Positions 1 through 52,754 of a stretch of 52,754 nucleotides of DNA are shown here, one piece after another. Under the pieces are notes generated by a model that was not told the DNA's origin, made no database searches, and saw only the letters and a program-made list of their open reading frames with translations. The position numbers were made by a program, and so were the translations under genes. Position 1 is the first letter of the stretch, and every line of letters starts with the position of its first letter. This DNA comes from a virus, in the IMG/VR virus record IMGVR_UViG_3300028902_000450; one strand, written 5' to 3'.

Positions 1-141
1 GGCTGGCTCGGCTCGTCGTCGGTGTTTTCATGGACGGCAGCGGGAGTCGTTTCGCTCAACGGCAGCGCGGTGGTCGGCAACTCGTTGTCTGCGGACAAGG
101 TGAGTTTTACCGCTCCGACGATTTCGGGTCTCACCCTCACC
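1..141. repeat. Terminal direct repeat, left copy (identical to 52614-52754)
   Basis: Read directly: bases 1-141 (ggctggctcggctcgtcg...ggtctcaccctcacc) recur exactly at 52614-52754. This implies a 52,613-bp circular, permuted or terminally redundant unit. Confidence 0.95.
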
Positions 142-1677
142 AACAATTCGCCGTCAGCGGGCTATGTCGCGTGGTCGAGTTTCACCCTGACCTATCAGGG
201 CGTGAGTTACACCGTTGCAAGCGGCAACAGCAATTCAAAATACATCTATTGGAAAAAATCTGTCTCGACGACCGTGCTGCAAGCGAGCGCGACGATTCCC
301 GCCAACGCGCCCGATATGTTTATTGTGTGCGTGAATTTTTCGGGAACGGCGTATCAGAGCAATTTCGCTCCTTTCGTTTACGCAGACTATATCAGCGTCG
401 GAAACCTCGCAGCCATTAGCGCGGCAATGGGAACGCTGACCAGCGGAACGATTGTCGGGTCGCGCATTGCCACCAGCGATACGGGCGCCCGCACCGAGCT
501 GCACTATAACAATTTGTTCGGGTTGGGGTTCGGCGGCATCGGCGGCACGGACGGGACAACGACACAGTGGTATGCCAAAGCCAGCGACGGAAAAATTTAC
601 GCGGGCGGCGGAAATCTCACAATTGACGCGAACGGTCTGCGCTTTGTGCAAGGGTCGAGTGGGACGAATTCGGTCGAGTGGTATTCCGGTGCAAACGTTG
701 TCGGGCGTGCGTATGCGGTTGACGACGGAAGTTTGTTCAACACGCTTTATCTGTCAGGACGCGGCGTCACCGGCACTCGCAATGGGCGCATCTATTGCAC
801 AGTCACAGATTCCGCCGGAGCGACGACGGGGTTGTTTGTGGTCAGTGATAACAGTGTGCAATTAAGCAACGCCAATTTGGTTTGGAATACAGACAACGCC
901 TACGACTTGGGATACTATGGCTCGACTGCGTATCGCCCGCGCAATGTGTATGTCGCCGAAAAAATTTTTCTGAACGAAACCGCCAACGCGAATGCTGCCA
1001 CTGCGAGTATCACAATCCATCAAGGCGGAAATAACAATGAGGCATTTGCAATCAAGCGCACCAGTGTCGCGCACGGTATGACCTCGCTGACCGAAACGGA
1101 TACGTATGGTACAATCAAACCATTTCAAACGACCAATGGCGCACTTGGCATCTCGGGGTATTCGGCGTCAACCATCGGCATTAACTTGGGGGGCTATTAC
1201 ACGACGGGAAATACATCCCGCTCCACGTCGGCAGTCGGTGGGGTTGTCGTGGATGCGTATAAAAAATCGGGCGGCGGCAAGACAACGCCTGCGGCAAATG
1301 AAAATTTGTTTGTCGTGCGGAGCAACACGGCGGCGAAATTTTTGGTGGATGCGGAAGGTGATATTCACATGGACGCGACGAGTAATATCAATGCGTGGGA
1401 TGACCACGACGACGTGGCGCTATTGGAAGCGTATCGCGTCAAAACCGCGCAGCCGCCCAATTATCGTCGCGAGTTCGCACACGATGTAGAAAAGTATGCG
1501 CAGATTCTGCACGACACGGGCGTATTGACCCTCAACCCGGACGGGCATCATTTTGTCAGCATGAAAGGATTGTTTGGGCTGACGATTGATGCGCTGCGGC
1601 AGTTGGCGCTGCGTGTGGACCGTTACGAGCGCGCGTTGGTTGCGCTGGGCGTGGACGCGCGTTCGCTGGACGCATAA
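1..1677 (+). CDS. Tail fibre protein, C-terminal part (same ORF as 50559-52754 across the junction; about 1243 aa in total)
   Basis: The frame of ORF 22-1677 stays open back to base 1 and is in phase with the stop-free frame 50559-52754. The sequence is G/S/T/N-rich and beta-type. The last ~90 aa (DDHDDVALLEAY..YAQILHDTGVL..GLTIDALRQLALRVDRYERAL) resemble the intramolecular-chaperone (peptidase S74-like) module of fibres and spikes. Confidence 0.8.
   Translation, partial: GWLGSSSVFSWTAAGVVSLNGSAVVGNSLSADKVSFTAPTISGLTLTNNSPSAGYVAWSSFTLTYQGVSYTVASGNSNSKYIYWKKSVSTTVLQASATIPANAPDMFIVCVNFSGTAYQSNFAPFVYADYISVGNLAAISAAMGTLTSGTIVGSRIATSDTGARTELHYNNLFGLGFGGIGGTDGTTTQWYAKASDGKIYAGGGNLTIDANGLRFVQGSSGTNSVEWYSGANVVGRAYAVDDGSLFNTLYLSGRGVTGTRNGRIYCTVTDSAGATTGLFVVSDNSVQLSNANLVWNTDNAYDLGYYGSTAYRPRNVYVAEKIFLNETANANAATASITIHQGGNNNEAFAIKRTSVAHGMTSLTETDTYGTIKPFQTTNGALGISGYSASTIGINLGGYYTTGNTSRSTSAVGGVVVDAYKKSGGGKTTPAANENLFVVRSNTAAKFLVDAEGDIHMDATSNINAWDDHDDVALLEAYRVKTAQPPNYRREFAHDVEKYAQILHDTGVLTLNPDGHHFVSMKGLFGLTIDALRQLALRVDRYERALVALGVDARSLDA
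85..99. repeat. Dyad motif copy TTGTCTGCGGACAAG
   Basis: In the tail fibre gene, in frame as LSADK. It is duplicated at 52698-52712 by the terminal overlap. Confidence 0.9.
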
Positions 1678-3264: not shown

Positions 3265-4266
3265 TTACAAATCTTCACCCGTCAACGCGCGCCGAATCGC
3301 GGCGTGCTGCCCGATGCCCTTGTCACGGATGTAACGTCGCAGCATGTCGGCGCTCTTGTGTTTTGTGACTTCTTGAATCTCGTACTCGGGCGTGCCGTCT
3401 TGCGCCGCCTGCGTGACGAATCCTGCGCGCAAGCTGTGACCGCCGTACTGCGCGCTGTCTGCGGACAAGGGCAAATCCCGCTTGACGATGAACGCCACAC
3501 TGCGCGGACTCATGCGCGCTTTCGACGGATGCCCCCAGCGGTCAATCTTGCGGAATAATGGACCGTCGGTAATCTCCGCCGCCGCAAGCCACTGCTCGAG
3601 TGCGGCGACCGGACACATCTCTGGCGTGGCAGCCACACGCGGAATGCGTTTGACAATCCCGCGTCCTTCTTGGTCCGTCTTTGATTTGCGCAGCGTCACA
3701 ATCATTTCGTCGAGACGCAGCTGCACGTCGGACACATCAAGCCCGGTGAGTTCGGATTGGCGAAACGCGCCCGCGTACCCGAGCAAAAGCAGCGCGCGGT
3801 CGCGCACGTTGACGAGCGTATCCTCTTGCAAGCGCAAAAGAATCTCGGCGAGAAATTCGCGCGTGATGGGTTCTTTTTGCCCTGGGCGCGTTTTGCGCTG
3901 CCGTCGAATACCGCGCATGATGACCGTCACGCGCGGGTCTTGGGTTGGGTCATCCAGCTTGTGCATCCGGTGATGATACGAAATCGCGGCGAGCGTGACT
4001 TGAATCCACGAGACGCTTTTTTCTTCGTCTGCCATGAACGTGATGCAGTCCAGCACCGCCTCGACGGATGCCGGCAGGGCAGGGTGATGCTTCCAATTAC
4101 AAAAAAATTGAAAGCCCGCGAACGCATCTCGATATGTATCGTCCGTGCCTTGCGCGATGTGCGAGCCGAAATAATTCAAGATGCGCGCTTGCGATTCGTC
4201 GGACAAAGAACGTCCGTTGGACAATGCGGTCTCGTGCGGAACGGTTAAAGCAGAAGTGGTTTTCAT
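3265..4266 (-). CDS. Tyrosine recombinase, Cre-like architecture (333 aa)
   Basis: Catalytic signature: AGAFRQSEL (Arg), RKSKTDQEG, GHSLRAGFVTQAAQDG, KHKSADMLRRYIRD (Tyr). The C-terminal layout parallels P1 Cre (HSARVG...NIVMNYIRN). The start was taken at MKTTSAL (ATG at 4266). Confidence 0.85.
   Translation of the reverse strand: MKTTSALTVPHETALSNGRSLSDESQARILNYFGSHIAQGTDDTYRDAFAGFQFFCNWKHHPALPASVEAVLDCITFMADEEKSVSWIQVTLAAISYHHRMHKLDDPTQDPRVTVIMRGIRRQRKTRPGQKEPITREFLAEILLRLQEDTLVNVRDRALLLLGYAGAFRQSELTGLDVSDVQLRLDEMIVTLRKSKTDQEGRGIVKRIPRVAATPEMCPVAALEQWLAAAEITDGPLFRKIDRWGHPSKARMSPRSVAFIVKRDLPLSADSAQYGGHSLRAGFVTQAAQDGTPEYEIQEVTKHKSADMLRRYIRDKGIGQHAAIRRALTGEDL
3455..3469. repeat. Dyad motif copy CTGTCTGCGGACAAG (14 of 15)
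   Basis: In the Cre-like gene (minus strand), in frame as LSADS. Confidence 0.85.
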
Positions 4267-5893: not shown

Positions 5894-7131
5894 GGTTCAC
5901 CTCGACAACGGATTGTGCAGCACGATGCGCTCGCCGTGACGCACCGCGATTTTGTTTGGGTTACGGGCGGCGCGTTCTGGACGCGTTCGATGGCATCGTG
6001 AATCGAGCGCAGTTCGACTGCAATGGGGTCAATCAACGCAGTCAAGCCCTGCGTGAGAGGAATAACAAAATCATTGCTCATGCGGTCCAGCGCGGCTTCG
6101 AGCCGCGGCAACTGCCCGTTCAGCACCGGCTTTTCGATGACTTGAATCTCGACACGCGGTTCCGGTGTTTCGACGACGCTCAACACGGGACGCGCGGTCA
6201 ATTCGCGTTTCAAACGCGCGTTCTCGGAGCGCAAGTGTTCGAGCATGTCCGATTCTTCGCGCGCCTGCGCGGGAATGTCCCCCAGCTGTGCGACGAGGGA
6301 TTCAATCACGTCCGACGCTTTCGGCACGACAAAATCTTGCGTGCCCGATTTCGGTCGTTCGGTTTGCGGCTTGTCGGCGACAAAGTGAATAACGCCCTTT
6401 TGACTCGACACCAGCGCCGGACCAAACGCGTACCATTCGCCCGCGCCCATATCGCGCAGCAGCGGATAGTCTGCTGTTTTCAGTCCGAGAATGTCTCCCG
6501 CGCGCTTTTGGTCCACGTCGAGCACGGTGCCGCCGATGAAAACGTTTTTCGCGTCGGCGATGCCGTCCTTGTCAATTTTGCTGAATCGCTGTGTGGCGAC
6601 GATTTCGCAAAACTCGCGTTTGCGTCCCTGCGACATCATATTGACGACCGCCGCGCGGGACGGTGTATTGCCCTTTTCGGGCGCATAGATGTGCGCCTCG
6701 TCGAGCATGATGAGCATCGGATGCCACATGCTTTTTGGCACGTTCAGCAGCGCGGCGAGGAATTCCGCGACGAACGCGCGGCGTCCTTCGAGTTCGAGGT
6801 CGTAGAGATTCACGACCGCAGAGATACGCATGTCGGCGAGACGCCGCGCGAGCATGGCGGCGCTTTCGACTGTAATCGGCACGTCACGTCCATCCCCGAC
6901 GAGCAAAACATCCAGCACTTTGCGGAGGGTGACGAATTCGTCCTCATGGTCGAGGATGATGGTTTGCATCACGCCCGCCGCGCGTTCGGCAATGAGACGC
7001 ATGAGGGTGGACTTGCCGCCGCCGCTCGATGCTTCAATCAATGCGCGCGTTTCGACGAGCTTGCGCAGGTCGAGATAGACCGGCTCGCGCGAGACCACAA
7101 GTTCGCCAATCTTGATTTGAAATTTATCCAT
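5890..7131 (-). CDS. HerA/FtsK-like (DUF87-type) P-loop ATPase, 413 aa
   Basis: Walker A EASSGGGKST, ILDHEDEF, Walker B MLIMLDEAH, and QGRKREFCEIVATQRFSKID, in HerA/DUF87 order. The ATG at 7131 is preceded by AGGAAAACA. C-terminal coiled coil. Confidence 0.75.
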   Translation of the reverse strand: MDKFQIKIGELVVSREPVYLDLRKLVETRALIEASSGGGKSTLMRLIAERAAGVMQTIILDHEDEFVTLRKVLDVLLVGDGRDVPITVESAAMLARRLADMRISAVVNLYDLELEGRRAFVAEFLAALLNVPKSMWHPMLIMLDEAHIYAPEKGNTPSRAAVVNMMSQGRKREFCEIVATQRFSKIDKDGIADAKNVFIGGTVLDVDQKRAGDILGLKTADYPLLRDMGAGEWYAFGPALVSSQKGVIHFVADKPQTERPKSGTQDFVVPKASDVIESLVAQLGDIPAQAREESDMLEHLRSENARLKRELTARPVLSVVETPEPRVEIQVIEKPVLNGQLPRLEAALDRMSNDFVIPLTQGLTALIDPIAVELRSIHDAIERVQNAPPVTQTKSRCVTASASCCTIRCRGEP

Positions 7132-7468
7132 TGTTTTCCTTGTCTGCGGACAATGCCGCGCGGGGACGCAGCATACGCCGCAAGCCGCCCGCGTCCGTTT
7201 CGCCGGGCGTCGCATCGGACACGCGCACGAGCAGCCAATCGCCGCTGTCCAATTCCCACTTGTCTTGGACGAATTTGAAATCTCCTTCGCGCCGCGCAAA
7301 ACACATCACGTCCACGAACGCGGCGTTGCGCGCAAGGACAATCTCAATCGTTTGCGGCTGCGCGAAGAGGAGCGCGAGCAGATGCTCCACCACGCTCCCG
7401 GCTTGCGGCGTTTCGATGGTCGCGGAGTTCGGCGCGGTGCGCGGCACGGGCGGCAATCCAGTTGTCAT
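7124..7468 (-). CDS. Hypothetical protein (114 aa)
   Basis: Internal ATG (MTTGLPPV) of ORF 7124-7663. Its end overlaps the HerA-like start. It contains an LSADK motif copy at its C-terminus. The start is uncertain. Confidence 0.45.
   Translation of the reverse strand: MTTGLPPVPRTAPNSATIETPQAGSVVEHLLALLFAQPQTIEIVLARNAAFVDVMCFARREGDFKFVQDKWELDSGDWLLVRVSDATPGETDAGGLRRMLRPRAALSADKENNG
7139..7154. repeat. Dyad motif copy CTTGTCTGCGGACAAT
   Basis: At the 3' end of 7124-7468 (minus strand), in frame as LSADK. It overlaps the RBS region of the HerA-like gene. Confidence 0.85.
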
Positions 7469-9875: not shown

Positions 9876-10175
9876 TCAATTCTCCTTTTCAAATTCTTGC
9901 GCGATTTCCTTGCCGAGTTGGGCGAGCATCGCGCGGTCGCCGCGCGTGAGATTGCCCAACTCCCAGTGGTAGCGTAATTCGCCGATGATGTGCTGCGCGG
10001 TAAACGCCGCGTGCACAGTCAAAAGCGTCGTCGTCGGTTCGAGCGCGAGGTCCGGCAGCGTGAAACCGGCGAGCGCGTCGCTGTCGCCGAATTCCGGTTC
10101 GATGGTTTCCTCGGGGCGGACAAATTCGCGCCGCGCGGTTTGCGCGTATGCCGTTTTGCCGTTCGCGCGTTTCAT
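9876..10175 (-). CDS. Hypothetical protein (99 aa)
   Basis: Co-oriented ORF. It overlaps the upstream gene's stop by 4 nt. Confidence 0.6.
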   Translation of the reverse strand: MKRANGKTAYAQTARREFVRPEETIEPEFGDSDALAGFTLPDLALEPTTTLLTVHAAFTAQHIIGELRYHWELGNLTRGDRAMLAQLGKEIAQEFEKEN

Positions 10176-12025
10176 TTCTTGTCCTTTCTCGCTCCGCGCT
10201 CTGTTTTCGACAGTTTGCGCGTGATGGTTTTCAACGCCGCCTGCGTGTATTCGTCCGCGTGTGCTTGCGAGCAGAACACGCCCTTGTCCCCGTTGTCTAC
10301 CCAGCCATCTTCGTTCCTATCGCGCTGGGTCAATTTTTCCGACGTGTTGCCGGCGAACACACCGCAGTGCCAGCAGTTGAACGCGGTGTAGTGGATGGGC
10401 GGCACATCCCACCCGTCCGGGAGCGTTACGCCAAAGCCGGGATGCTGTGCGTCGCGGTTGTCACCGGCGCACAGTGCTTCGACAACCTTTTTCACTTTGG
10501 GATAATTGGTTTCGCGTTCGTTGTTTGAGGCGCTGAAATAACCGGCGATGGCTTCCTGCGCAATGACGCGCAGCGCGACGATAGACAATTGCCATTGCCG
10601 GCGCATGGTCTCATCCGTCGCGGTTTTGAATTCCGACCGGAAGCGCGTTTCAATGGGTTCCGCGCCCAACACCGCGCGGTGATTGCGGAAAAATTCTAAC
10701 GCGATAAATCCGACGAACGTCCCGCGATGATGTGGGGTCAATGCCGCGCCGATTTCGAGCGCGGCATGTTCCATCACCCACAAACCGTCATAATACGATT
10801 TCCACATTGCGGAACGCGCCGCGCGTTTGGCGTCCATTTCTTTTTGCTCTTGTGCGACGCGTTTCGCGCGTTCGGCGTCGCTTTCGGTGTCTGTGGACAC
10901 GGCGCGCGCTGGTTTGGCGGGCGCATTGCGTTCGGCGAAATACGCGTCAATTGCATTTTTGTCGGTTGTGACCAGGGTGAGCGCAGCGGATCCGAGCACG
11001 TGCGACAAGGAATTGTGATATTCACCGGCATACGGCGCGAGGCGCAATACCGCGCGAACGTCCTTGCGCGCGTTGAGCAGGTCCCGCGCGCGGTCGTCGT
11101 CGCCATACGCGTTGCGGAATAACGGGGTTGTGGTTTCGCCCGGCGCAACGGCGGAGATTTTCAGTTTGGCGGACACGCGCGCGGCTTCTGCTTCGGCAAA
11201 CATTTTATTTTTTTCGTCGCGGCAGAGTTTGCGCGCGCAGCGGTTCCCGCCGACATTGAACACGCAGCCGGCACACGCGCCAATGAAATTGTCCCCGTCG
11301 CCGAGGTCCAGGGTCGTCTCGACCGGCGCGTCCTCCAACCAATCGAGCGTCCAATTGCCGAGCGGCACGAGTTTGTTGGAATAGTTGCGGCGAATGGAGT
11401 TATCGAACGTTTCCTGCTTTGCCGATTTCGGCGCGGCTGCCACTTCGTCCGCGATTTTTTGTGCCGCTTTCGGATTCACCGCGGCGACGCCGACGAGTTG
11501 CCGCGCCAGCGCATCGGGCAACTCGTCGTTGGCGACGTGCTGCTGGATCGGCGCGGGCAAGCGCAACAGTTTGCGAATGTTGCTGATGCTTGCCGGGTCC
11601 TTGAGACGGAACACGCGCGCGAGGTCCGCATTCGTGGCATCGGGGCGCACCTGCTTGTAGGTTTCAATCATTTGCGCGCGCTCGATGTCGTTCAGGTCAG
11701 TGCGGTGGATGTTTTCTTCTATTACACCCTCAAGCATTTCAAAATTGGTGAGCGGTTTGAGAATTACAGTAAAGGGTGGTTCGTCTGGAAACGCGGCGCG
11801 CCACGCGGCGAGGCGGCGATGTCCCATTTGCAATTGCACCGCGCCGCTGACGTCGGGATGCGGACGCGCGGGCGGGGGTTGGTGGATGCCGTTGACGCGG
11901 ATGTCTTCGACGAGCGCATCGAATTCCTCGCCGCGAAAACGGCGCGCGGAGTGATGTTGATAGGGGTTGGCGAAAACGAGTTCGGGGTCGAACGCGCGGA
12001 GCGTTCCGTTCGGTTGGTCAGACAT
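10172..12025 (-). CDS. Large ParB/Srx-domain protein (617 aa)
   Basis: The N-terminal ParB-like domain contains VQLQMGHRRLAAWR and ENIHRTDLNDIERA, followed by an HTH-like segment (NADLARVFRLKDPASISNIRKLL). Cys-rich C-terminus. The RBS context is GGGAGACCC. Confidence 0.75.
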   Translation of the reverse strand: MSDQPNGTLRAFDPELVFANPYQHHSARRFRGEEFDALVEDIRVNGIHQPPPARPHPDVSGAVQLQMGHRRLAAWRAAFPDEPPFTVILKPLTNFEMLEGVIEENIHRTDLNDIERAQMIETYKQVRPDATNADLARVFRLKDPASISNIRKLLRLPAPIQQHVANDELPDALARQLVGVAAVNPKAAQKIADEVAAAPKSAKQETFDNSIRRNYSNKLVPLGNWTLDWLEDAPVETTLDLGDGDNFIGACAGCVFNVGGNRCARKLCRDEKNKMFAEAEAARVSAKLKISAVAPGETTTPLFRNAYGDDDRARDLLNARKDVRAVLRLAPYAGEYHNSLSHVLGSAALTLVTTDKNAIDAYFAERNAPAKPARAVSTDTESDAERAKRVAQEQKEMDAKRAARSAMWKSYYDGLWVMEHAALEIGAALTPHHRGTFVGFIALEFFRNHRAVLGAEPIETRFRSEFKTATDETMRRQWQLSIVALRVIAQEAIAGYFSASNNERETNYPKVKKVVEALCAGDNRDAQHPGFGVTLPDGWDVPPIHYTAFNCWHCGVFAGNTSEKLTQRDRNEDGWVDNGDKGVFCSQAHADEYTQAALKTITRKLSKTERGARKDKK

Positions 12026-12046
12026 GGTTAGGGTCTCCCTTGTGAT

Positions 12047-12061
12047 TTGTCTATGGACAAC
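12047..12061. repeat. Variant dyad TTGTC-TATG-GACAAC
   Basis: Intergenic, 22 nt upstream of the start of the 617-aa ParB-like gene. Confidence 0.7.
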
Positions 12062-12071
12062 GTTTAGCGTT

Positions 12072-14077: not shown

Positions 14078-14118
14078 AGCACAATAGTTTGGAACAGAAT
14101 TTCGGAACGGATGTTGTA

Positions 14119-14147
14119 TTGAAAGCGGAAAGTAAATTCGCGATAAT
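14119..14147 (+). promoter_or_regulatory. Sigma70-type promoter TTGAAA-17-GATAAT facing integrase 2
   Basis: Read directly. The upstream GTTGTATTGA is shared with the promoters at 25730 and 28147. The spacer contains GAAAGCGGAAA. Confidence 0.5.
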
Positions 14148-15871: not shown

Positions 15872-15873
15872 TT

Positions 15874-16237: not shown

Positions 16238-16245
16238 CTGAAGGA

Positions 16246-23049: not shown

Positions 23050-24843
23050 CTATTTCGATTTTTTGTTGGTCGCGGCGTTCGTCGTCTTGGGGGCGGGTTT
23101 GACTTTGTCCTTTGCCTTTGCTTTCGACGCCGCTGATTCCGGCTTTGCTTTGCTCACGGGTGCGGAAGCGTCGGGTTCGGCTTGTGGCGTCTCATCGGGT
23201 TTCGGCGTTTCGTTCGTCGGCGTGGGTTTGTCCGCTTTCGGTTGAACCGTATCGCCGATGTGCATGGGCATCATCACATGGCGATAACGCGGCAGGGCGA
23301 TATAGCCCGGCGTGCTCGACGTTGTGACGCGCAGGGCGATGGGGTGCGCACCATTGTTGAACGCCGCCGCGCGCAGCGCATCGCTCAAGAAATCCGCGTT
23401 GAACGCAATCTCGAAATTTTCTTCGGGCTGCCACGCGGGGTCGAAGGTTGCGGGAATGATTTCGGCGACGTCGCCCGTGTCCGCGCTCGATGCGGCGACG
23501 AGCACATGGTCGGCTTTGACCGTGAGCCGCGCGCAGTGCGTTTCGCTGATGAGGTTCACGCGTTGCAGCGCCGCCAGCGCGGGTTCGACGGCGAGCGGGA
23601 GATACGGCAGCGACGGCACAGGGTTAGGAACGATTTGATTAAAGTCGGGGAAATTGCCGTCAATCAGATTCATGCGTAATCCGCCCGCGTTCGTTTCCAC
23701 CTGAACCATGCCGTATTCCAACACGCCTTTCTTGTCGAGTTGGAGATGAAAGAGGAACTGAATCGGTTTCGCCTCGTCGGTCGCGATTTTCAACGTTTCC
23801 GCGAACACTTTGGCGGGCACAATCAGACCGAGTGAATCGAGCGGTTGGTCAGCGTCGAAATGCAGGGTCACATCGCGTTCGAGCACCGCGAGCCGAAACC
23901 CATCGGCGCTGCTGAATTCAAGCGTCACGTTTTGCCCGGACGTGGCGGGGAATTTGCCAGAGACATAGACACCCTGCAAGACTGGGCGCGCATCGTCGGT
24001 TGCCACACACGGCACAATGCGCTTGACGATTTCGTTCACCGCCTCGTGCGTCATATCGGCACCGACGACGATAGATTTGCCGTTGAACGCGGTCGCGGGG
24101 GGAAACTCGCTGGCATCCAGAGACTTGAGCGACACATTCAAACGTCCCGCTTCGATGCGCGTGAGGTAGGTTTTGGCGTCGGTTGTGAGCGTGACCAACA
24201 CATCGTCGTTCACGCGCGCCAGCAAGTCGCCGAGCAAATGCGGCACGCACACTTTGCCTGGACGCAGCACTTTGGCTTGCGCGAGATGCCAAAGGGTGAA
24301 ATTCAAATCGGTTGCGGTAAAGCGCAGCGACTCGGCGTCGAGCGCTTCGATGAGGATGTGCGAGAGCACGGGAATGCTCGACCCTTTGCCGCGCGCCCGG
24401 TCCACGTTTTTGAGCGCGGCTTTCAGCGCGCCGGCGCGTATCACAATCTGTTGTCCCGTTTTTTCGGATGGGACCGATTCCGCTTGGACCGTGGGCGCGG
24501 GCTTGTCCGCAGACAAGTTCGCCGTGACATCCGCCGCGAGTTCGAGCGCGGCGTCAATTGCGGCTTGGTCGCGTGCGGCTTGTTCCATCTCCGCATTCTG
24601 GACGAGCAATTCCGCTTTGGCGGTGATGATTTGTTCTTCCGTTTGCGGCGTTGGTTTCGGCGTGATTTGTTTGCGCGCCGCGCGTTTGGCAGGCGCTTGC
24701 GGTTTCGGAGCGGGTGCGATGGGCGTTTGCGCTTTTGCGGTCTTGACGGATTTGGTCTTGACGACATTTGTCTTGGCGTTCGCGGATTTGGCTTGTATGG
24801 CTTTAGCGATGCGCGCGTTTTCTTTTTGCAGTTTGGTATTCAC
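23050..24843 (-). CDS. dnaN: DNA polymerase III beta sliding clamp homologue with Lys/Ala/Pro-rich N- and C-terminal extensions (597 aa)
   Basis: The core (IPVLSHILIEA..LRFTATDLNF...ASEFPP...DDARPVLQGVYV...EFSSADGFRLAV) is colinear with bacterial DnaN. The tails contain KTKSVKTAKAQTPIAPAPKPQAPAKRAARK and SKAKAKDKVKPAPKTTNAATNKKSK. GTG start after AGGAGACCCAAA. Confidence 0.8.
   Translation of the reverse strand: MNTKLQKENARIAKAIQAKSANAKTNVVKTKSVKTAKAQTPIAPAPKPQAPAKRAARKQITPKPTPQTEEQIITAKAELLVQNAEMEQAARDQAAIDAALELAADVTANLSADKPAPTVQAESVPSEKTGQQIVIRAGALKAALKNVDRARGKGSSIPVLSHILIEALDAESLRFTATDLNFTLWHLAQAKVLRPGKVCVPHLLGDLLARVNDDVLVTLTTDAKTYLTRIEAGRLNVSLKSLDASEFPPATAFNGKSIVVGADMTHEAVNEIVKRIVPCVATDDARPVLQGVYVSGKFPATSGQNVTLEFSSADGFRLAVLERDVTLHFDADQPLDSLGLIVPAKVFAETLKIATDEAKPIQFLFHLQLDKKGVLEYGMVQVETNAGGLRMNLIDGNFPDFNQIVPNPVPSLPYLPLAVEPALAALQRVNLISETHCARLTVKADHVLVAASSADTGDVAEIIPATFDPAWQPEENFEIAFNADFLSDALRAAAFNNGAHPIALRVTTSSTPGYIALPRYRHVMMPMHIGDTVQPKADKPTPTNETPKPDETPQAEPDASAPVSKAKPESAASKAKAKDKVKPAPKTTNAATNKKSK
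24502..24517. repeat. Dyad motif copy CTTGTCCGCAGACAAG
   Basis: In dnaN (minus strand), in frame as LSADK. Confidence 0.9.
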
Positions 24844-30426: not shown

Positions 30427-31052
30427 TGGACGCGAAAGCGGAAAAATCGCCTTCGCTGATTTGGGAAAGACGCGAGGGCGAGCCGAACAAATGGTTTGAC
30501 CGATTTCAAACTTACTTGCTGCTCGGTTCGTCGCGGTCGCTCTATGCGGCATACACGGCTTGGCGCGAGCGGAATGGCGCGAACCGCGCGCAAAAGCGCG
30601 CGGGATTGCCGCAATCGTGGCGTCTGGCGGCGGAACGTTGGGAATGGGCAAAACGCGCGGAGCAATTTGACGAACACGAACGCGCGCAGCACGTGGCAGA
30701 ATGGGCGCGCCGGCGCGATGAATTGCGCGAACACGAGTGGAAATTTTCGCAAGAATTGTTGGACAAAGTGCGTCAAATGCTCGTGTTCCCATTAGCGAAA
30801 ACGGTGCGCTCGACGCAGGACGGCGGGCAGACGGTGGTCACAGAGGTTTACCCGGCAAATTGGAAACTCGCCGACGCCGCGCGCATGTTGGAGGCGGCGA
30901 GTAAATTGGCGCGGCTCGCCGTCGGTGTCGAAACCGAACGCATCGGCGTTGACGTTGGTCTGACGGCAGATGATTTGGTGCGTGCCGCGCGCGAAGTGAT
31001 GGAATGGGAGCAGCAAACCTATGGCAGCTTGTCTGCGGACAAGACGGAGTAG
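30426..31052 (+). CDS. Small-terminase-like protein, paralogue 1 (208 aa)
   Basis: WFDRFQTYLLLGSSRSLYAAY...GLPQSWRLAAERWEWAKRAEQFDEHER is an HTH-type TerS N-terminus, paralogous to 33061-33741. Confidence 0.55.
   Translation: MDAKAEKSPSLIWERREGEPNKWFDRFQTYLLLGSSRSLYAAYTAWRERNGANRAQKRAGLPQSWRLAAERWEWAKRAEQFDEHERAQHVAEWARRRDELREHEWKFSQELLDKVRQMLVFPLAKTVRSTQDGGQTVVTEVYPANWKLADAARMLEAASKLARLAVGVETERIGVDVGLTADDLVRAAREVMEWEQQTYGSLSADKTE
31028..31043. repeat. Dyad motif copy CTTGTCTGCGGACAAG
   Basis: At the 3' end of TerS-like paralogue 1, in frame as LSADK. Confidence 0.9.
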
Positions 31053-33741: not shown

Positions 33742-35159
33742 CCAAAATCGAAATTCGCGAAGGTCTCAAGTGTCAAAAATCGGCGCTGTATTTTATTTAT
33801 CAGTACGTCCAGATTTATGACGCGACGCGGCGGGAATGGGTCCCGTTTCATTTGTATCCCGCGCAAGTTGAAGTACTGAATGCGCTCCTTTCCAATTCGC
33901 TGCTCGTGATTTTGAAAGCGCGTCAACTCGGAATGACATGGCTGGTGCTCGCGTTCGTGTTGTGGTCCATGCTCTTTCATCCTATCGTCACCGCATTGCT
34001 CTTTTCCAAGCGCGATGACGAGGCAACCTATCTGCTCGGCGTCGAACGCCTCAAAGGGATGTATGAACGGCTGCCGCAATTCTTGAAAGCGCGGAGCATC
34101 GAAGTAGACAACGACCATGAGTGGCTGCTGTCGCAGGGTTCGATTGCGCGGGCGTTCCCGACGAGCGCGGGGGATTCCTACACGGCGAGCATTGTGTTTG
34201 TGGACGAAGCCGATTTGGTCCCCGACCTCAATCGGCTGATGAATTCGGCAAAGCCGACGATTGATGCGGGCGGCAAATTGATTTTGCTCTCGCGTGTGGA
34301 CAAGACGAAACCGCAGAGCGAATTCAAAAACATCTACCGCGCGGCAAAGGCAGGCACAAACGGGTGGTATCCGATTTTTTTGCCGTGGACGGTGCGCCCG
34401 GAGCGCACGCCCGAATGGTACGAGCAACAAAAGCGCGACATTCTCGCCCGCACAACCGCGCTCGATGACCTGTATCAGCAATATCCGGCGACCGATACCG
34501 AAGCGTTGTCACCGAACACACTGGACAAACGCATTGCGGCATTGTGGCTGGAGCAATGCTACAGCGAACACTTGAGTTTGTCCGCAGACAAGTTGCCCGA
34601 AGGCGCGCCGAGCATTCCGGGTCTGACGATTTACAAACTGCCCGAACCAAATCGCAAGTACGTCATCAGCGGCGACCCGGCGGAAGGCAATCCGACATCG
34701 GATGATTCGGCGAGCGAGGTGTTGGACAAGGACACGGGCGAAGAGGTTGCGAGTCTCGCGGGGAAATTTCAACCCGCCGTGTTCGCGGCGCACATTGACA
34801 CGATTGGAAAATTTTTCAATCGCGCTGACGCGATGATAGAGCGCAACAATCATGGACACGCGGTCTTGCTCTGGCTGCGCGACAATTCAAGTTTAAGAAT
34901 TTTGACAGGATTCGACGACAAGAACGGCTGGCACTCGACGGTGCTGGGCAAGACGATGTTATACGACGCGTGCGCGGACGCGTTCCGCAATAAAGAGACC
35001 ATGCTGCATAACTTCACGACGTTCACACAATTGAGCATGATTGAGGGCTCGACCCTGCGCGCGCCGGAGGGCGAGATGGACGACCGCGCGGATGCTTACG
35101 CGTTGGCACTCGTGGCGCGTGTGCGCGCGGGCAGTCGCGCGAGCGTGGATTGGGTGTGA
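33738..35159 (+). CDS. terL: Terminase large subunit (473 aa)
   Basis: LYPAQVEVL...LVILKARQLGMTW (Walker A variant), IVFVDEAD (Walker B), and the nuclease-region motif GEMDDRADAYALA. Confidence 0.85.
   Translation: MTKIEIREGLKCQKSALYFIYQYVQIYDATRREWVPFHLYPAQVEVLNALLSNSLLVILKARQLGMTWLVLAFVLWSMLFHPIVTALLFSKRDDEATYLLGVERLKGMYERLPQFLKARSIEVDNDHEWLLSQGSIARAFPTSAGDSYTASIVFVDEADLVPDLNRLMNSAKPTIDAGGKLILLSRVDKTKPQSEFKNIYRAAKAGTNGWYPIFLPWTVRPERTPEWYEQQKRDILARTTALDDLYQQYPATDTEALSPNTLDKRIAALWLEQCYSEHLSLSADKLPEGAPSIPGLTIYKLPEPNRKYVISGDPAEGNPTSDDSASEVLDKDTGEEVASLAGKFQPAVFAAHIDTIGKFFNRADAMIERNNHGHAVLLWLRDNSSLRILTGFDDKNGWHSTVLGKTMLYDACADAFRNKETMLHNFTTFTQLSMIEGSTLRAPEGEMDDRADAYALALVARVRAGSRASVDWV
34578..34592. 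repeat. Dyad motif copy TTGTCCGCAGACAAG
   Basis: In terL, in frame as LSADK. Confidence 0.9.
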
Positions 35160-42232: not shown

Positions 42233-42571
42233 ATGAATCGTTTGCCGCGCACACGCCAACGAATCATGCAAACCCTGAAAACGCTGGAATTGTTCAGTGG
42301 CATTTTGCCGAGCGGCGATGTGGTCACGCTCTTTACGGGCAACGAACGCGCGTTCGACGATGCGGACGCGGCGTATTTGCTCGCCGAATATCCCGAACGG
42401 TTTGAGCGCGTTGCAGAAGAACGCGCGCCGCGTGCTCCATCCGGCATGGGATTGTCTGCGGACAAGCCGCAACCCGCCGCGCCACCGGATGCCTCGCTCG
42501 AAACGAAAATGACAGATGTTCCCGACGATGTGGAAAAATTCGGCGCGACCGCGCGACGCAAAAAGAGTTAG
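42233..42571 (+). CDS. Hypothetical protein (112 aa; start uncertain, GTG at 42221 also possible)
   Basis: ORF 42221-42571. It contains an LSADK motif copy. Confidence 0.5.
   Translation: MNRLPRTRQRIMQTLKTLELFSGILPSGDVVTLFTGNERAFDDADAAYLLAEYPERFERVAEERAPRAPSGMGLSADKPQPAAPPDASLETKMTDVPDDVEKFGATARRKKS
42452..42466. repeat. Dyad motif copy TTGTCTGCGGACAAG
   Basis: In 42233-42571, in frame as LSADK. Confidence 0.9.
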
Positions 42572-45537: not shown

Positions 45538-47997
45538 ATGGCAATTCTAACCATTACCATCAAAGGTGACGACCAAGCCAGCGACAAAGTCGAGAAACTC
45601 GCGAAAGCGTTCGCGCAGCTCGAGCAGGGCGCCAAGCGCGCGGGAGAGGGACTCGACAAGGCAGCGGCGCAAACGGGCAAGCTGAGCCAAGCTGCCCAAG
45701 CCGTTGACGGTGCCGGGCGTCAAGCGCGCATTGGACTTGGAGCAGCCGCACAAGCCGCCGAGCAGTTGGGCGTGAATATCGGGGGCGTCGTCGGACCGGC
45801 GGCGGGCGCGGCAGGCGCGGGTGCGGCGTTGGGACCCATCGGCATTGTCGTCGGCGCGCTCGTCATCGGCATTGGTCTCGCGGCAGCCGCGATTGACAAG
45901 TACAACCAATCGCAAGCCGCGACCGTGATGCAGACCGATGCGGTCATTCAGTCCATGCACGGATTGATTACGACGAACAAAGCGGCAGCCGCTGCCGCGC
46001 AAGAGTACGCGCTCGCGCAGGCGCAAGCCATCACCTACGCGCAAAAAGGTCTCTCGACGAATCTGGGCGATTACGCGCAGTCGGCGGCGGATGCCGTTCT
46101 CGCATTGGACAAAGCGACGAACGGCGTGATGCGGTTCATTCCGCAGTGGAATCAGCAGGTCGCGGGCGCGCGCGCATTGGGCGAAGCCGTTGAAACGAGC
46201 GCGGAAAAAGCCGACAAACTGCGTGCGGCGTTGGTGAATCTCCCCTTTAACGAAATGCGCGACGCGCTCAATCAGCTCACCGCGCAAAATCCCTTCGAGC
46301 GGTTGGCGCAATCGGCGGGCTTGTCTGCGGACAAGTTGAAAGAAATGGCATCCGCGAGCGTGACCGTGCGGAATTCGCTCAACGACCTCATCAGCATCGA
46401 ACAGACGCTCGCGCTGCTCCAAGCCCAACGCGCGGAGCTGCAGCGGCAGCTCGCCGACGCGCAAATGGCAGGGGACACTGCCAAGATTGGAGAGTTGACC
46501 GCCAAGTTGGACGAAAACGCCGCGGCGATGGAACGGGTGCGGCTTAAAGCGAACGAAGTCCGCGACGCGTTGCAAAACATGGTCGGCGACAAACCCATTT
46601 ACGATTTGCAGCGACTCGAAAACGCCGCGCGCGCGGCGGCGAACAACGGCATGACCGCCGTGCAAGATTGGAACAAGAAAGTCGAGGACGCGCAAGACCG
46701 CGTGGCACGCGCGATGGGCATCCTCAAGGACCCCATCGAACGATGGGAAAAAGACCAAATCGACGCGTATCAAAATTCACAGCGCGCGGCGGAAAAATGG
46801 GCGCAAGCGGTCAGCGCCGCGATGCAAAAGGTGCGCGCGCTCGTCGAAGCGGCGATGCAACCCACGCAGGTTTCGCTCGACGACCTCAACGCCGCGATGA
46901 CGGGCAAGTACATCCCCAAGTGGGATGAATTCAGACGCCGCGTCGAAGCCGTCGCAACGGGGACGAACATTGACCAATTCGGTCCCAAGTTCAAGGCGCA
47001 ATTGGAAATGGTGCAATCCATGTTCCAAAACCTGAACCTTGACGAAATCGCCGCCAAGTTCAAGGATTTCAGTTTGTTCGCCGATTTGAACACCGACCAA
47101 ATCAAGCAGCTCATTGATTTCGGACCCATCGAAGCGCAGGTCTCGCAGCAAATTGACAGCATCATTGGCAAAGCCAAAGCGATGGAAGTGGCATTCAATG
47201 ACGTGTGGGCATCGCTCTCGTCACAGAAAAAGATTGACCTTGCGCAGGCGCTCAACATTGACGTAACCAAAGTGGACATCAATTCGGCGCAAGTGCAAGA
47301 CCAGATTGAAAAAGCAGTCACGGGCGCGACTGGCGGCGCGGGCGCGGGACAAAACCAAGTCGCCGCGACTGTGACTGCCAAACTCACGTTCGACCACGCG
47401 GCGGCAGATAAAGAAGCGGCGGCGGCGCAAGCGAAAATTTTGGCGATTCCCGCGAGCAAGGCGGGCGAGACGGTCAAGACGCTGTTGAACGTGGACCACG
47501 CGGCAGCGGATGCCGCCGTCAGCGCGCTCACCAGCGCGATTGCCGGCATTCCCGCGAGCAAGGCGGGCGAGATGGTGACGACGATTGTGGATGTCGTCAA
47601 GGCGCCGACGTTCGACGAAAACTTTGACGCCATCATGGAAAAAATCAACTCCATCCCGACCGAGATTGACGTGCACGTGAATATGGTCGGCGGGGAGAGC
47701 GGTGGAACGGAAGGCGGCGGTACGCCACCCGTTGGGCAGCAGCACGGCGGCGCGGGCGTGCTCGCGCGCGACACGCTTTTTTACGCGCACGCGGGCGAGG
47801 GCTATTGGTTCAGCGGGGTGCCGTGGCGCGTGCCTCCACCATCGGGGGGCTCGAACGCGCGTTTTGGACCGCCATCCATCACCATCGGCACGGTCGTCGT
47901 GCGCGACCCGGAAGACGCCAAAAAATTGGCGCGCGAAATTATTGCGGAATGGGAAGACCAATTGATGCGCAGCGGGCGCGCGTTGGAGCGGCACTAA
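45538..47997 (+). CDS. Tape measure protein (819 aa)
   Basis: Long Ala/Gln-rich helical protein with a Gly/Ala hydrophobic block (GPAAGAAGAGAALGPIGIVVGALVIGIGLAAAAI) and the internal repeat IPASKAGE(T/M)V. Confidence 0.85.
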   Translation: MAILTITIKGDDQASDKVEKLAKAFAQLEQGAKRAGEGLDKAAAQTGKLSQAAQAVDGAGRQARIGLGAAAQAAEQLGVNIGGVVGPAAGAAGAGAALGPIGIVVGALVIGIGLAAAAIDKYNQSQAATVMQTDAVIQSMHGLITTNKAAAAAAQEYALAQAQAITYAQKGLSTNLGDYAQSAADAVLALDKATNGVMRFIPQWNQQVAGARALGEAVETSAEKADKLRAALVNLPFNEMRDALNQLTAQNPFERLAQSAGLSADKLKEMASASVTVRNSLNDLISIEQTLALLQAQRAELQRQLADAQMAGDTAKIGELTAKLDENAAAMERVRLKANEVRDALQNMVGDKPIYDLQRLENAARAAANNGMTAVQDWNKKVEDAQDRVARAMGILKDPIERWEKDQIDAYQNSQRAAEKWAQAVSAAMQKVRALVEAAMQPTQVSLDDLNAAMTGKYIPKWDEFRRRVEAVATGTNIDQFGPKFKAQLEMVQSMFQNLNLDEIAAKFKDFSLFADLNTDQIKQLIDFGPIEAQVSQQIDSIIGKAKAMEVAFNDVWASLSSQKKIDLAQALNIDVTKVDINSAQVQDQIEKAVTGATGGAGAGQNQVAATVTAKLTFDHAAADKEAAAAQAKILAIPASKAGETVKTLLNVDHAAADAAVSALTSAIAGIPASKAGEMVTTIVDVVKAPTFDENFDAIMEKINSIPTEIDVHVNMVGGESGGTEGGGTPPVGQQHGGAGVLARDTLFYAHAGEGYWFSGVPWRVPPPSGGSNARFGPPSITIGTVVVRDPEDAKKLAREIIAEWEDQLMRSGRALERH
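46320..46335. repeat. Dyad motif copy CTTGTCTGCGGACAAG
   Basis: In the tape measure gene, in frame as LSADK. Confidence 0.9.
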
Positions 47998-50566: not shown

Positions 50567-52754
50567 AGTCTTGACCGTTCCCTACGAAGCATCGCTGCCC
50601 TCATTTGGCAGTCCCGCTGCGCGCAAAAACGTGCGCCCGCGGGACTTTGTGCTGCAAGGCAACAACGGCGGGTGGGTTACGATACCCAGCGCCGAGTACG
50701 AACTCGATAAAAAGAATGGCATCGTGCGCCAGCGGTCTGAGGACAGCGCGGGCAATGACGTGGATTGGGAAGCGTATGTGTCGTATCGCTGGAGCGGCGT
50801 CATTGTCACCAGCGGCTCACGCGCGACGATTACGAATGAGGCGTTGACGTTCGCCGATGCGGACTATGCGGACATCGAAGCAGGACCCGACGAACAAATC
50901 CAAGAAAGCTTAGCGAGCGATTCCGTCGAGCAAGACGACAACTCGAGCGACGAATCGCAAAGTGATAATTACGTCGCAGGCGTCAGCGGGTATTTCATTG
51001 ACCGCGTGACGGGCAACGCCGAATTCAACAACATCACCGCGCGCGGCACGATTGTTGCGACGGCTGGCAGCATTGGCGGGTGGACCATCACCGCGACCGC
51101 ATTGTACAAAGATACAGGCGTGGATGCGACCAGCGCGGGCATGTCGCCGAGCGATTATCCGTTCTACGCGGGCGCGACCTATGCCAACCGCGCGAACGCG
51201 CCGTATCGCGTGCTGCCGGATGGTTCGGTCTTTGCAACGCAGTATTTCAAAATCGGTTCCAATGACCTCGTTTTCGACAATGCGACCGACCAGCTCGTGT
51301 GGCTCAAAGGTCTTTCGTTCGACCGTCTCGACGTGGCAACGACGGGCACATTCAATCTCGACACGCAAGGACGCAGTTGGATTCGTCTAACCGGCACGGC
51401 GACGGCGAAAACCATCAACTATATCAAAAAGCCGTCGAACATTGCCGGGCAAATCCTCATCATCAAGAATGACGCGAATCCCGTTACCGTCACTAAGACC
51501 AGTCAACTGACGCTCAAGAACAATCAAGGTTCGCCGCCCGCCGGGTATGCGGCGATGTCGCTGTATGGCAAGAATGTCGTGCTGAAAAGTTTCGGCACCG
51601 TCACGCTCATCTATGACAGCGCGAACGCGCGCTGGACGCTCGCGGCGGTGGTCAAAGCGACCAAAACCAAAAACAACAGTGAACTTTCGGAAGAGGGTTA
51701 CGACGAGGATGTAAGCGTAACGTCTGCGCTGCCGACTTCGACGAGCGCGCGCGCGGGAACGGATGTGCTCACGCTTTCGGCGGGCACACTCGCGGTGGAT
51801 ATGGACATTCCTGCATCGTCCACGTGGACGATGGAATTGGTCACGCCCGCGGACGGAACGACGTGGCTGTTTGCGAACGGCGACACGGCGTACATGCGCA
51901 GCGGCGCGAATGAAATCTATTTCACCGTCGCGCGCGACGTGAACGACGGCGTCACGCAAACGTATACCTGCACCTTTGCCAATGGCACACGCCCACTTTC
52001 GTTTGCCGCAGGCAGCGGCGTATTGAATTACGGCGCGAGCGGGCAGGGATTCTTGTACGAAACGGTCGTGTCGGGTTTGCCCTATATGAGCGTGCGCACG
52101 CATAGCGGTTCGCCATGGTCCCCCACCGAGCGCGTGCGGCTCGGCAGTTTGACCGGCATCACCGACCCGACGTTCGGCGCGCTGAGCGGGTATGGGCTTT
52201 GGACGGACAATGTCTATCTCACTGGCGCCATCAAGTCCACCAGCGGACAAATCGGCGGATGGAACATTGGCGCGTCATCGCTCACCGGCGGCAGCGCCAC
52301 GCTGCACAGCTCGGGGTATCTGCTGCTCGGCACATCGAATGACATCGTGCGGCTCGACGCTGCGGATGCCACCTATCGGCTGTGGATCGGCAATGCGACG
52401 GCGGCGAGCGCGCCGTTTCGTGTCACCAAAGCCGGTGCGGTCACGGCAAGCAACATTGACCTCGCAGGCGGTTCGGTGTCAGGGACGTTCACGGTCAGCG
52501 GAACGTTGCGCAGCGCGGCAAGTCCCAACGCGCGGTACGAGTTGACAGGCGCGGGCTTCAAATCGTATGACAGTGGTAACGTGCAGCGCACGCAGATTCT
52601 GAACGATGGTTCGGGCTGGCTCGGCTCGTCGTCGGTGTTTTCATGGACGGCAGCGGGAGTCGTTTCGCTCAACGGCAGCGCGGTGGTCGGCAACTCGTTG
52701 TCTGCGGACAAGGTGAGTTTTACCGCTCCGACGATTTCGGGTCTCACCCTCACC
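50559..52754 (+). CDS. Tail fibre protein, N-terminal 732 codons (continues at base 1 through the circular junction)
   Basis: The ATG at 50559 overlaps the upstream stop (ATGACTAA). No stop occurs to the window end. Repeated GGW.I....L modules. Not listed in the ORF track because it has no stop in the window. Confidence 0.8.
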   Translation, partial: MTKVLTVPYEASLPSFGSPAARKNVRPRDFVLQGNNGGWVTIPSAEYELDKKNGIVRQRSEDSAGNDVDWEAYVSYRWSGVIVTSGSRATITNEALTFADADYADIEAGPDEQIQESLASDSVEQDDNSSDESQSDNYVAGVSGYFIDRVTGNAEFNNITARGTIVATAGSIGGWTITATALYKDTGVDATSAGMSPSDYPFYAGATYANRANAPYRVLPDGSVFATQYFKIGSNDLVFDNATDQLVWLKGLSFDRLDVATTGTFNLDTQGRSWIRLTGTATAKTINYIKKPSNIAGQILIIKNDANPVTVTKTSQLTLKNNQGSPPAGYAAMSLYGKNVVLKSFGTVTLIYDSANARWTLAAVVKATKTKNNSELSEEGYDEDVSVTSALPTSTSARAGTDVLTLSAGTLAVDMDIPASSTWTMELVTPADGTTWLFANGDTAYMRSGANEIYFTVARDVNDGVTQTYTCTFANGTRPLSFAAGSGVLNYGASGQGFLYETVVSGLPYMSVRTHSGSPWSPTERVRLGSLTGITDPTFGALSGYGLWTDNVYLTGAIKSTSGQIGGWNIGASSLTGGSATLHSSGYLLLGTSNDIVRLDAADATYRLWIGNATAASAPFRVTKAGAVTASNIDLAGGSVSGTFTVSGTLRSAASPNARYELTGAGFKSYDSGNVQRTQILNDGSGWLGSSSVFSWTAAGVVSLNGSAVVGNSLSADKVSFTAPTISGLTLT
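52614..52754. repeat. Terminal direct repeat, right copy (identical to 1-141)
   Basis: Read directly. Confidence 0.95.

Follow-up and report, generated by a model that had tools for sequence, protein, structure and literature searches.

A near-palindromic DNA motif dispersed in a single reading frame through a phage genome is a likely target of a sequence-specific DNA-binding protein

Here we show that the virus record IMGVR_UViG_3300028902_000450 of IMG/VR, a stretch of 52,754 nucleotides referred to below as the window, carries a dispersed near-palindrome of 14-16 bp of the CTTGTC-TGCG-GACAAG type (M1; full 16-mer CTTGTCTGCGGACAAG), which is genuine, greatly exceeds chance expectation, is kept by selection on the DNA, and is specific to the lineage of this phage, within which its sites turn over. 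As judged from the sequence, M1 most likely serves as a double-stranded DNA site recognised by a sequence-specific protein that probably binds as a dimer. The phage's own orphan ParB-CTPases (309 aa and/or 617 aa) are tentative candidates for the protein that reads it.

Orphan ParB-CTPase proteins are common on prophages, with DNA targets and roles that are unknown, and their function was called still unexplored by a 2025 survey (PMC12704722). The phages that carry M1, which appear to have Anaerolineae-type hosts, form an almost unexplored group, and the phage studied here provides a ready-made test pair, consisting of two canonical orphan ParBs and one sharply defined 16-bp candidate site with natural centre variants.

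Results

M1 is present in eight unique copies and belongs to a wider family of sites

The window holds 52,613 unique bases at 57.4% G+C and represents a circular or terminally redundant assembly, its first 141 bp being identical to its last 141 bp. M1 has perfect arms of 5-6 bp around a centre of 4 bp. Exact matches to the search word TTGTCYGCRGACAA were found at 85, 7140, 24503, 31029, 34578, 42452, 46321 and 52698, the last of which is a duplicate of the copy at 85 because the terminal 141 bp are identical; a further copy, at 3455, has one arm mismatch (CTGTCTGCGGACAAG, CTGTC...). The eight unique copies listed in an earlier note on this DNA, made from its letters alone, are therefore all present, whereas none of 100 dinucleotide-preserving shuffles contained any match to the search word (expected 0.00).

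A more permissive family pattern, (T)TGTC-YRYR-GACA(A), has 12 members in the window (Table 1). Their centres are TGCG or CGCA in eight cases, TGTG at 10887 and 37287, TATG at 12047 and TACA at 16741, the last two being variants to which the earlier note had already drawn attention. All TGTC-N4-GACA sites in the window have an alternating pyrimidine-purine centre; matches to GTC-N4-GAC without the outer T and A have random centres. The even spacing reported previously holds for the family, both for the 12 sites counted here (coefficient of variation, CV, 0.40, P = 0.001) and for the 11 sites of the first count (CV 0.31, P = 0.0002), but not for the CV of the eight strict copies (P = 0.22), although the smallest gap between these is no less than 3.4 kb (minimum-gap P = 0.006).

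Table 1. M1 copies, centre variants and ParB-like proteins in the window. Gene calls were taken from public contigs; the window corresponds to the JGI metagenome contig 3300028842 Ga0310073_1235730.
Feature	Position	Gene or context (strand)	Reading or remark
M1 (GTTGTCTGCGGACAAG)	84..99	1243-aa tail-fibre-like gene (+)	LSADK; duplicated at 52697-52712 via the 141-bp terminal repeat
M1, one arm mismatch (GCTGTCTGCGGACAAG)	3454..3469	333-aa tyrosine recombinase gene (-)	LSADS
M1	7139..7154	3' end of 114-aa gene 7468..7124 (-)	LSADKENNG-stop, 4 codons ahead of the stop
Variant GTGTC-TGTG-GACAC	10887..10900	inside 617-aa ParB gene (-)	VSTD
Variant TTGTC-TATG-GACAA	12047..12060	intergenic, past the stop of a 48-aa gene and ahead of the 617-aa ParB ribosome-binding site	
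Variant TTGTC-TACA-GACAA	16741..16754	leader between early promoter (16560-16588) and first early gene (ATG 16850)	
M1 (CTTGTCCGCAGACAAG)	24502..24517	N-terminal extension of DnaN-like gene (-)	LSADK
M1	31028..31043	3' end of 208-aa TerS-like gene (+)	LSADKTE-stop
M1 (TTTGTCCGCAGACAAG)	34577..34592	TerL (+), hypervariable loop	LSADK
Variant GTGTC-TGTG-GACAA	37287..37300	portal gene (+)	VSVDK
M1	42451..42466	112-aa gene 42233..42571 (+)	LSADK
M1	46320..46335	819-aa gene (+), tape-measure position	LSADK
617-aa ParB-family protein, candidate binder	10172..12025	(-)	first ~200 residues pass TIGR00180; GHRR motif; long C-terminal extension
309-aa orphan ParB, candidate binder	26304..27233	(-)	ParB_N + HTH_ParB, GERRFRA + ENVHR
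281-aa protein, previously taken as a third ParB	28219..29064	(+)	N-terminus weakly like the ParB-like N-terminus of phage DNA methyltransferases

The functional labels first given to the genes that bear M1 stand for the tyrosine recombinase, the DnaN-like protein, TerL and the 208-aa TerS-like protein (PHROGs, 5.7e-10), while "tape measure" and "tail fibre" reflect size and position only. The copy at 7140 lies outside the HerA/DUF87 gene, 9 nt upstream of its ATG (7131).

M1 is confined to one reading frame and is selected as DNA

All eight M1 copies lie inside called genes in phase 0, where they read LSADK or, in the recombinase, LSADS, which bears out the single frame described in the earlier note; the ten intragenic members of the family all read x-S-x-D-x. 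The pentapeptide LSADK occurs 7 times in the window, against 0.028 expected from amino-acid frequencies (15,878 codons). The nucleotides are more constrained than this peptide would demand. All eight LSAD peptides are spelled TTG TCY GCR GAC A(A/G)N in a genome in which TCT serves for 6% of Ser, GCA for 15% of Ala and AAG for 33% of Lys, and under the genome's own codon usage a site with this peptide would have the M1 codons with a probability of about 0.004.

Homologues of TerL point the same way. The loop that carries M1 in this protein is rich in indels, and about 80 homologues have sequence there that is unrelated and varies in length; LSAD is found in the loop only in the closest relatives (LSADI in L178 and L396, LSADN in L335), with the exception of one PISAD in the TerL of L257, encoded by unrelated codons. 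The peptide is not conserved beyond the closest relatives, then, and no conservation with varied codons was seen. Together, the codon test and the loop comparison uphold the proposal that selection acts on the nucleic acid rather than on the peptide. Insertion of M1 as a 15-bp cassette was ruled out, as alignments give substitutions and not a 5-codon indel.

The sites are inside genes because about 90% of the genome is coding, and their frame is locked because the other ways of reading the motif add cysteine or arginines: three contain cysteine (C-L-R-T, C-P-Q-T, V-C-G-Q), which makes up 0.8% of residues in window proteins, the fourth is arginine-rich (V-R-R-Q), and only x-S-x-D-x is benign. 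Owing to the dyad symmetry, this reading is identical from either strand. M1 is a clean natural case of a DNA-level signal confined by protein coding to one reading frame.

M1 has no fixed orientation and an asymmetric centre

The dyad arms surround a centre that gives each copy a direction, and this direction is not fixed relative to transcription. On the sense strand, five window copies read UGCG and three CGCA; the de-replicated family table gives 17 to 10, with the strand assigned roughly, by the longest open frame. The TerL site, CGCA in the window, is TGCG on the same strand in L178, L335 and L396, and has therefore flipped between close relatives. The best reading of these observations is that whatever recognises the motif sees double-stranded DNA and is blind to direction. 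Polarity with respect to the replication strand was ruled out, since orientation along the genome alternates (+,+,+,-,+,-,+,+).

Asymmetry of the centre is nonetheless a consistent property of the sites. T-R-Y-G or its complement was found in 27 of 31 de-replicated family sites, which combine the half-sites TTGTCT and TTGTCC, and a self-complementary centre in none of the 31. Coding is not the source of this asymmetry, because positions 6 and 9 are third codon positions. Restriction avoidance could account for it only in part: the window has 2 CTGCAG sites where 14 would be expected, but also 14 CCGCGG sites.

Avoidance of certain short palindromes is itself a marked feature of the window, where GGCC occurs 2 times versus 191 expected, GATC 17 times versus 210 expected, and many 6-bp palindromes are depleted, while CGCGCG (278) and GCGCGC (217) are very frequent. 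The depletion of GGCC and GATC suggests host restriction pressure from HaeIII- and MboI-type systems.

Sites are specific to one phage lineage and turn over within it

No known phage relative was found by megablast of 22 kb against GenBank phages, and tblastn with TerL gave matches at or below 30% identity only. Several JGI and Logan assemblies contain the same phage, with none of its sites disrupted, and the family was detected in L178, L180, L335, L362, L386, L389, L384, L184, L396, L398, L400 and L216. Among those with a TerL 93% identical to that of the window (L178, L396, L398), L396 carries the TGCG form 4 times in 20 kb, where 0.02 would be expected; sites are also present in L335, at about 82% nucleotide identity. 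With increasing divergence of TerL, L180 (82%) has 3 sites in 14.5 kb, L386 (79%) has TACG twice, L184 (69%) has TACG, CACG and TACA, L384 (68%) has TATG, TGCG and CATA, L389 (67%) has TATG and TACG, and L216 (60%) has two cores and one variant. L400, whose ParB is 56% identical, has two exact TGTCCGCAGACA cores. Some 75 further TerL relatives (about 0.85 Mb, TerL 52-66%) contain no family site, against about 0.8 expected.

Within the lineage, individual sites differ in how widely they are kept. No site is shared more widely than the one at the 3' end of the TerS-like gene (L180, L335, L362, L386, L389, L396), and the DnaN site is kept in L362, L396 and L398. In L400, the N-terminal region of DnaN contains a comparably placed M1 core (MSADK), which counts as a separate site after de-replication. 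The relatives' sites often lie in non-homologous genes. Such fast gain, loss and re-centring is what selection for a DNA signal predicts, and it shows intragenic signal sites being gained, lost and flipped over short evolutionary times.

Two of the relatives adjoin host genes. L396 lies in a 205-kb contig (ERZ27309503:k141_247415) and ends beside a TMEM260_N/DUF2723 glycosyltransferase gene, and L400 ends beside DprA and a STAND/WD40 gene, from which chromosomal integration of these phages follows. The phage contig of the window assembles as a circle. Homologues of ParB, TerL and the host flanks, including a 772-aa host protein of L396, have source names that point to Anaerolineae or Chloroflexota, which suggests a temperate phage lineage of uncultured Chloroflexi-type bacteria.

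In L184, the site at the end of the TerS-like gene lies 9 bp from the -35 of a conserved downstream promoter. Here the M1-family motif is the tip of a 46-bp perfect palindrome (L184 6603-6648, GGGTCAAGAGTCTGGATTGTCC followed directly by ACGGACAATCCAGACTCTTGACCC) at the end of the TerS-like gene, and the right arm of this palindrome contains the -35 (TTGACC) of the promoter, which is sigma-70-like.

Two of the genes that carry family sites have unusual architectures. The DnaN homologue (window 23050-24843) has, before its first clamp domain, an N-terminal extension of ~130 aa that bears M1 and is shortened in L362. The portal protein (756 aa, window 35454-37724) has a C-terminal 2',5'-RNA-ligase / LigT-like domain (Pfam), a fusion kept in L396 and L397.

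Orphan ParB proteins as candidate readers

Of the three ParB-family proteins claimed in the earlier note, two pass NCBIfam TIGR00180 (cut-off 58 bits). The 309-aa protein does so with 130 bits (ParB_N 1e-23, HTH_ParB 4e-14), carries the two CTPase motifs, the GxxRxxA box as GERRFRA and ENxxR as ENVHR, and has Noc as its best solved-structure match (9e-32); the 617-aa protein scores 66.6 bits. The 281-aa protein has no Pfam or NCBIfam match and shows only a weak ParB_N-like similarity. No ParA accompanies them, as had been stated: the Pfam hits on record for the called genes include no CbiA-, AAA_31- or ParA-type match. The ParA-interaction motif, defined as (L/F/I)G(K/R)G(L/F/I) (PMC12704722), was not seen in either ParB N-terminus when these were read directly. 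The window contains no canonical parS or Noc-binding site (NBS) within 3 mismatches; compared directly with the half-sites of these, M1 has T3, T5 and C6 in common, and the 16-bp dyad format is alike.

The orphan ParBs are the leading candidates because of this 16-bp dyad format, the lack of parS and NBS, and the presence of variants inside the 617-aa ParB gene and 22 nt upstream of its start codon (the variant at 12047). In the mechanism that we propose, one or both orphan ParBs would load at the 16-bp M1 dyads, move or spread along the DNA to cover the gap of some 4-5 kb to the next site, and act across the whole phage genome, as KorB does from 12 operators on RK2 or Noc from dispersed Bacillus sites, the outcome being the silencing or organising of phage DNA and not plasmid partition. 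By analogy with those systems, an integrating Chloroflexota phage would have its entire genome coated, silenced or organised by ParB-CTPase clamps on evenly spaced, frame-locked dyads, a picture that we regard as doubtful. If true, it would amount to a KorB-like whole-genome switch in a phage, would provide the first defined DNA target for a large class of orphan prophage ParBs, and would make the centre's obligate one-base asymmetry a component of how the clamps load. From the parS-like loading site suggested in the earlier note, this proposal retains the 16-bp dyad, the ParB-family proteins and the lack of a ParA. A partition role falls away as unlikely, since close relatives are prophages integrated beside host genes.

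Several observations weigh against a ParB as reader. Homologues of the 309-aa ParB from phages with family sites are 56-91% identical to it (L184, L384, L389, L396, L400) and those from phages without such sites 38-55% (L402, L401, L229, L390-L393), a comparison that is confounded by phylogeny. At the boundary, L402 (ParB about 55%) and L401 (51%) have no family site, while L400 keeps the exact core despite a ParB only 56% identical and with a different recognition helix, and L184 (ParB 74%) uses other centres, so that there is no clean co-variation of site and protein. M1 copies come no nearer than 1.8 kb to the 309-aa ParB gene, and a consistently asymmetric centre is not predicted by a plain homodimer. 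The 81-aa helix-turn-helix (HTH) protein, the TerS-like proteins or unannotated phage proteins are equally possible readers, and a host protein common to related Anaerolineae-type hosts would also explain how the motif persists across diverged phages. Among the more distant ParB-309 homologues in IMG/VR (24-46% identity), neither M1 nor a dyad resembling parS was seen, the repeats there being of ribosome-binding-site or 5'-UTR type, and a search with ParB-617 returned only the L216 contig again.

The 309-aa ParB gene lies in a recurrent neighbourhood. At window 27276-30426, and also in L396, L400 and L402, an MgsA_C protein and the orphan ParB stand beside a ParB_N-like protein and a TAGT-type (TET-associated) glycosyltransferase, joined in L402 by a UDP-glucose dehydrogenase. 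This arrangement hints at a possible DNA base-glycosylation module tied to ParB-fold proteins.

Other possible readers and roles of the motif

A different DNA-binding protein of the phage, either a dispersed regulator of immunity or the lytic switch, comparable to stoperators or the phiC31 conserved inverted repeats, or a small terminase with pac-like sites, is a rather unlikely reader, although the placement of several sites would suit it. The leader of the first early operon contains a family member some 150 nt past the early promoter, and prophages L396 and L398 have the canonical TGCG centre at the homologous position. The copy at 31028..31043 is 45 nt upstream of the -35 of a conserved promoter (31088-31116), and sites recur in or at the edge of TerS-like genes, namely at the 3' end of the 208-aa gene of the window, in the TerS gene of L400, at the TerS-like start codon of L384 and at position 9568 of L216. 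Most copies, however, are deep inside late structural genes, and to our knowledge there is no precedent for eight to twelve evenly spaced pac sites. Dispersed repressor sites are known in phage genomes (PMC9283540, PMC6550527), but M1 lacks the orientation bias to transcription that oriented stoperators have. The switch region itself is without a full M1 dyad: its divergent promoters (16516-16543 and 16560-16588) match the consensus at 12 of 12 positions, and no full dyad overlaps 16516-16588. The half-sites at 16537-16580 that were thought to build switch operators proved to be the -35 hexamers, TTGACA(A), of these two perfect-consensus promoters.

A host-driven motif is an unlikely explanation. 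In this case the site would be favoured across an Anaerolineae-type host genome, as the target of a nucleoid or segregation protein, as an uptake-type signal or as a HIP1-like iterated palindrome, and the phage would mirror or exploit it. The core does persist across phages with strongly diverged proteins (ParB at 56%, structural modules that differ), uptake sequences too show a frame preference and even spacing, and other phages carry dense short dyads of their own (L186 and L394, described below). Against this stands the host DNA that could be inspected, ~6 kb flanking L396 and L400, which is free of family sites, against 4 and 2 in the adjoining phage DNA; this excludes a density of ~1 per kb, and ~1 per 5-10 kb would still be compatible with it. 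The motif form TGTCYRYRGACA has a random expectation of about 1 per Mb. Pattern scans of GTDB genomes (15-mer) and metagenomes (16-mer) gave, among the matches listed (at least 120 in each), singletons in unrelated taxa plus two relatives of this phage, L335 and L362; a contig from the same metagenome as L335 (L360, 47.6% GC) is unrelated. A motif scan of IMG/VR returned 46 matches, all singletons and at chance level, and a literature search found no mention of the accession numbers and the motif strings only as chance primer matches. L186, a phage of the same TerL family and the same JGI project, is without M1, and we know of no competence or uptake signals in Chloroflexota.

Repeated 12-mers were surveyed in distant TerL relatives, where they are mostly longer intergenic repeats, ribosome-binding sites and tandem coding repeats, with L186 as the sole analogue of M1. 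This phage (IMGVR_UViG_3300028837_000751) has an 11-bp palindrome, ATACT-S-AGTAT (e.g. at 5223, 5283, 6204, 6954, 13154, 16004), with 6 exact and many one-mismatch copies in 18.5 kb, partly intragenic. In the 101.7-kb contig L394 (IMGVR_UViG_3300045007_000107), TGCAG-N4-CTGCA occurs 14 times within 20 kb, usually as TTGCAGCCGTCTGCAA, with a strand bias of 8 to 2. This dyad has a 5-4-5 architecture like that of M1 and includes the Neisseria DNA uptake sequence core, GCCGTCTG, and it may represent a host uptake-signal dialect on a phage or prophage.

It is quite improbable that M1 is the site of a DNA transaction, be it a site-specific nick, a base modification tied to the TAGT-like glycosyltransferase, or a short site for recombination or module exchange. 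Localized single-strand interruptions are a feature of T5 and phiKMV-like phages, and a strictly asymmetric centre (T..G, 27/31) would suit an enzyme that acts on one strand. What keeps this explanation alive is L362 (WBZR01023392.1), which has breakpoints close to M1. The 6.5-kb block between the copies at 24503 and 31029 (window 24518-31017) is missing there, and both flanking copies are kept, now 11 bp apart (LSADKLPADLSADK as read on the DnaN strand); the chance of both breakpoints falling so near M1 is about 2e-5. The lost block comprises the DnaN N-terminus, KTSC, ParB-309, MgsA_C, the ParB_N-like gene, the TAGT-like glycosyltransferase and the TerS-like gene, so that the ParB_N-like protein and the glycosyltransferase lie between two M1 copies, and relatives keep the glycosyltransferase beside the MgsA_C-ParB pair. 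This is, however, a single rearrangement; the remaining mosaic breakpoints that separate the window from its relatives do not fall at M1, and the retention of two copies in L362 is unlike the product of simple site-specific recombination. Moreover, no nickase or methyltransferase was identified, and the TAGT match in the window is below the Pfam cut-off.

An RNA element, in the form of a C(UNCG)G-type tetraloop hairpin in transcripts that would affect their stability, processing or translation, is very improbable: forward loops (UGCG, UACG, UAUG or UGUG) are closed by C-G with U1 and G4 as the conserved asymmetric positions, and forward copies fold at -10 to -15 kcal/mol, with z of -1.8 to -2.7 for 4 of 5 (the remaining one, at 42452, has -10.6 kcal/mol, z = -0.86 and a lowest-energy fold that differs from the motif hairpin), but three of the eight window copies and about one third of family sites run antisense to the gene that contains them, the folding of reverse copies is at the level of shuffled sequence (z about 0), and the TerL site is present in both orientations among close relatives. 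The tetraloop alternative considered in the earlier note is accordingly disfavoured.

Discussion

Comparison with known dispersed sites

Set beside the protein-binding sites known to be dispersed on mobile elements, M1 appears unusual in being almost entirely intragenic, frame-locked and obligately asymmetric at its centre, and in belonging to an unexplored phage group. KorB and its operator O_B on the IncP-1 plasmid RK2 (PMC11790492) resemble the arrangement proposed here in that a ParB-family CTPase is found on a mobile element of about 50-60 kb, with about a dozen copies of a short palindrome around the whole element, some near promoters and some distant. KorB loads at O_B and slides, silencing genes at a distance (PMC11790492). 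It differs in having a ParA partner, IncC, and a role in partition, whereas in our case no ParA was found and relatives integrate; moreover, O_B (TTTAGCSGCTAAA) is unrelated in sequence to M1 and lacks its almost exclusively intragenic, frame-locked placement, and KorB-like binding in this phage is a proposal.

Noc of Bacillus is likewise an orphan ParB paralogue without the ParA-interaction motif, and it recognises 16-bp dyads scattered in coding DNA. Unlike the proteins considered here, it belongs to the cell, where it tethers the chromosome to the membrane and positions cell division, and its site (TATTTCCCGGGAAATA) is not in the window. The ParB-parS and SopB-sopC systems of P1, N15 and F share the recognition of 16-bp dyads by ParB-type HTH proteins, and in N15 several centromere repeats are dispersed among phage genes. 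These systems need a ParA/SopA ATPase and segregate an extrachromosomal replicon, whereas relatives of this phage are integrated.

The stoperators of Cluster A mycobacteriophages (PMC9283540, PMC6550527) are another case of many short sites in temperate phages, being asymmetric sites of 13-14 bp through which a phage protein silences, and they evolve with the lineage. They differ from M1 in being oriented with transcription, mostly intergenic and bound by a monomeric repressor; M1 has dyad arms, follows no orientation rule and is intragenic. Finally, the DNA uptake sequence (DUS) of Neisseria, the uptake signal sequence (USS) of Pasteurellaceae and HIP1 of cyanobacteria are short, far above chance, found in favoured frames only and rather evenly spaced, all of which they have in common with M1. 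These are, however, properties of the host chromosome at about 1 per kb, and the limited host DNA examined showed no host-wide excess of M1.

Additional repeats in the early region

A second word, (AA)ACGCGCGGCGCG, is present in 9 copies versus 0.55 expected (0 of 100 shuffles), at 10815, 16952, 17683, 18101, 18783, 19791, 22270, 24674 and 25825, and is restricted to the early/replication third of the window (span 10815-25836). All six intragenic copies are sense-oriented, and the word is found again in L335 and L389. The spacer of the promoter at 25817-25845 is made up of one copy, and a similar GC-rich spacer is found in the promoter at 31088-31116.

The early leader contains two copies, 190 nt from each other, of a 20-mer able to form a hairpin, GTCA(A)GTGAAATGCCCACTG (16650-16669 and 16840-16860). 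Each copy carries an ATG without a Shine-Dalgarno sequence; the second of these starts the first early gene, and the first would give an 11-codon leader peptide, MPTDETERIVA.

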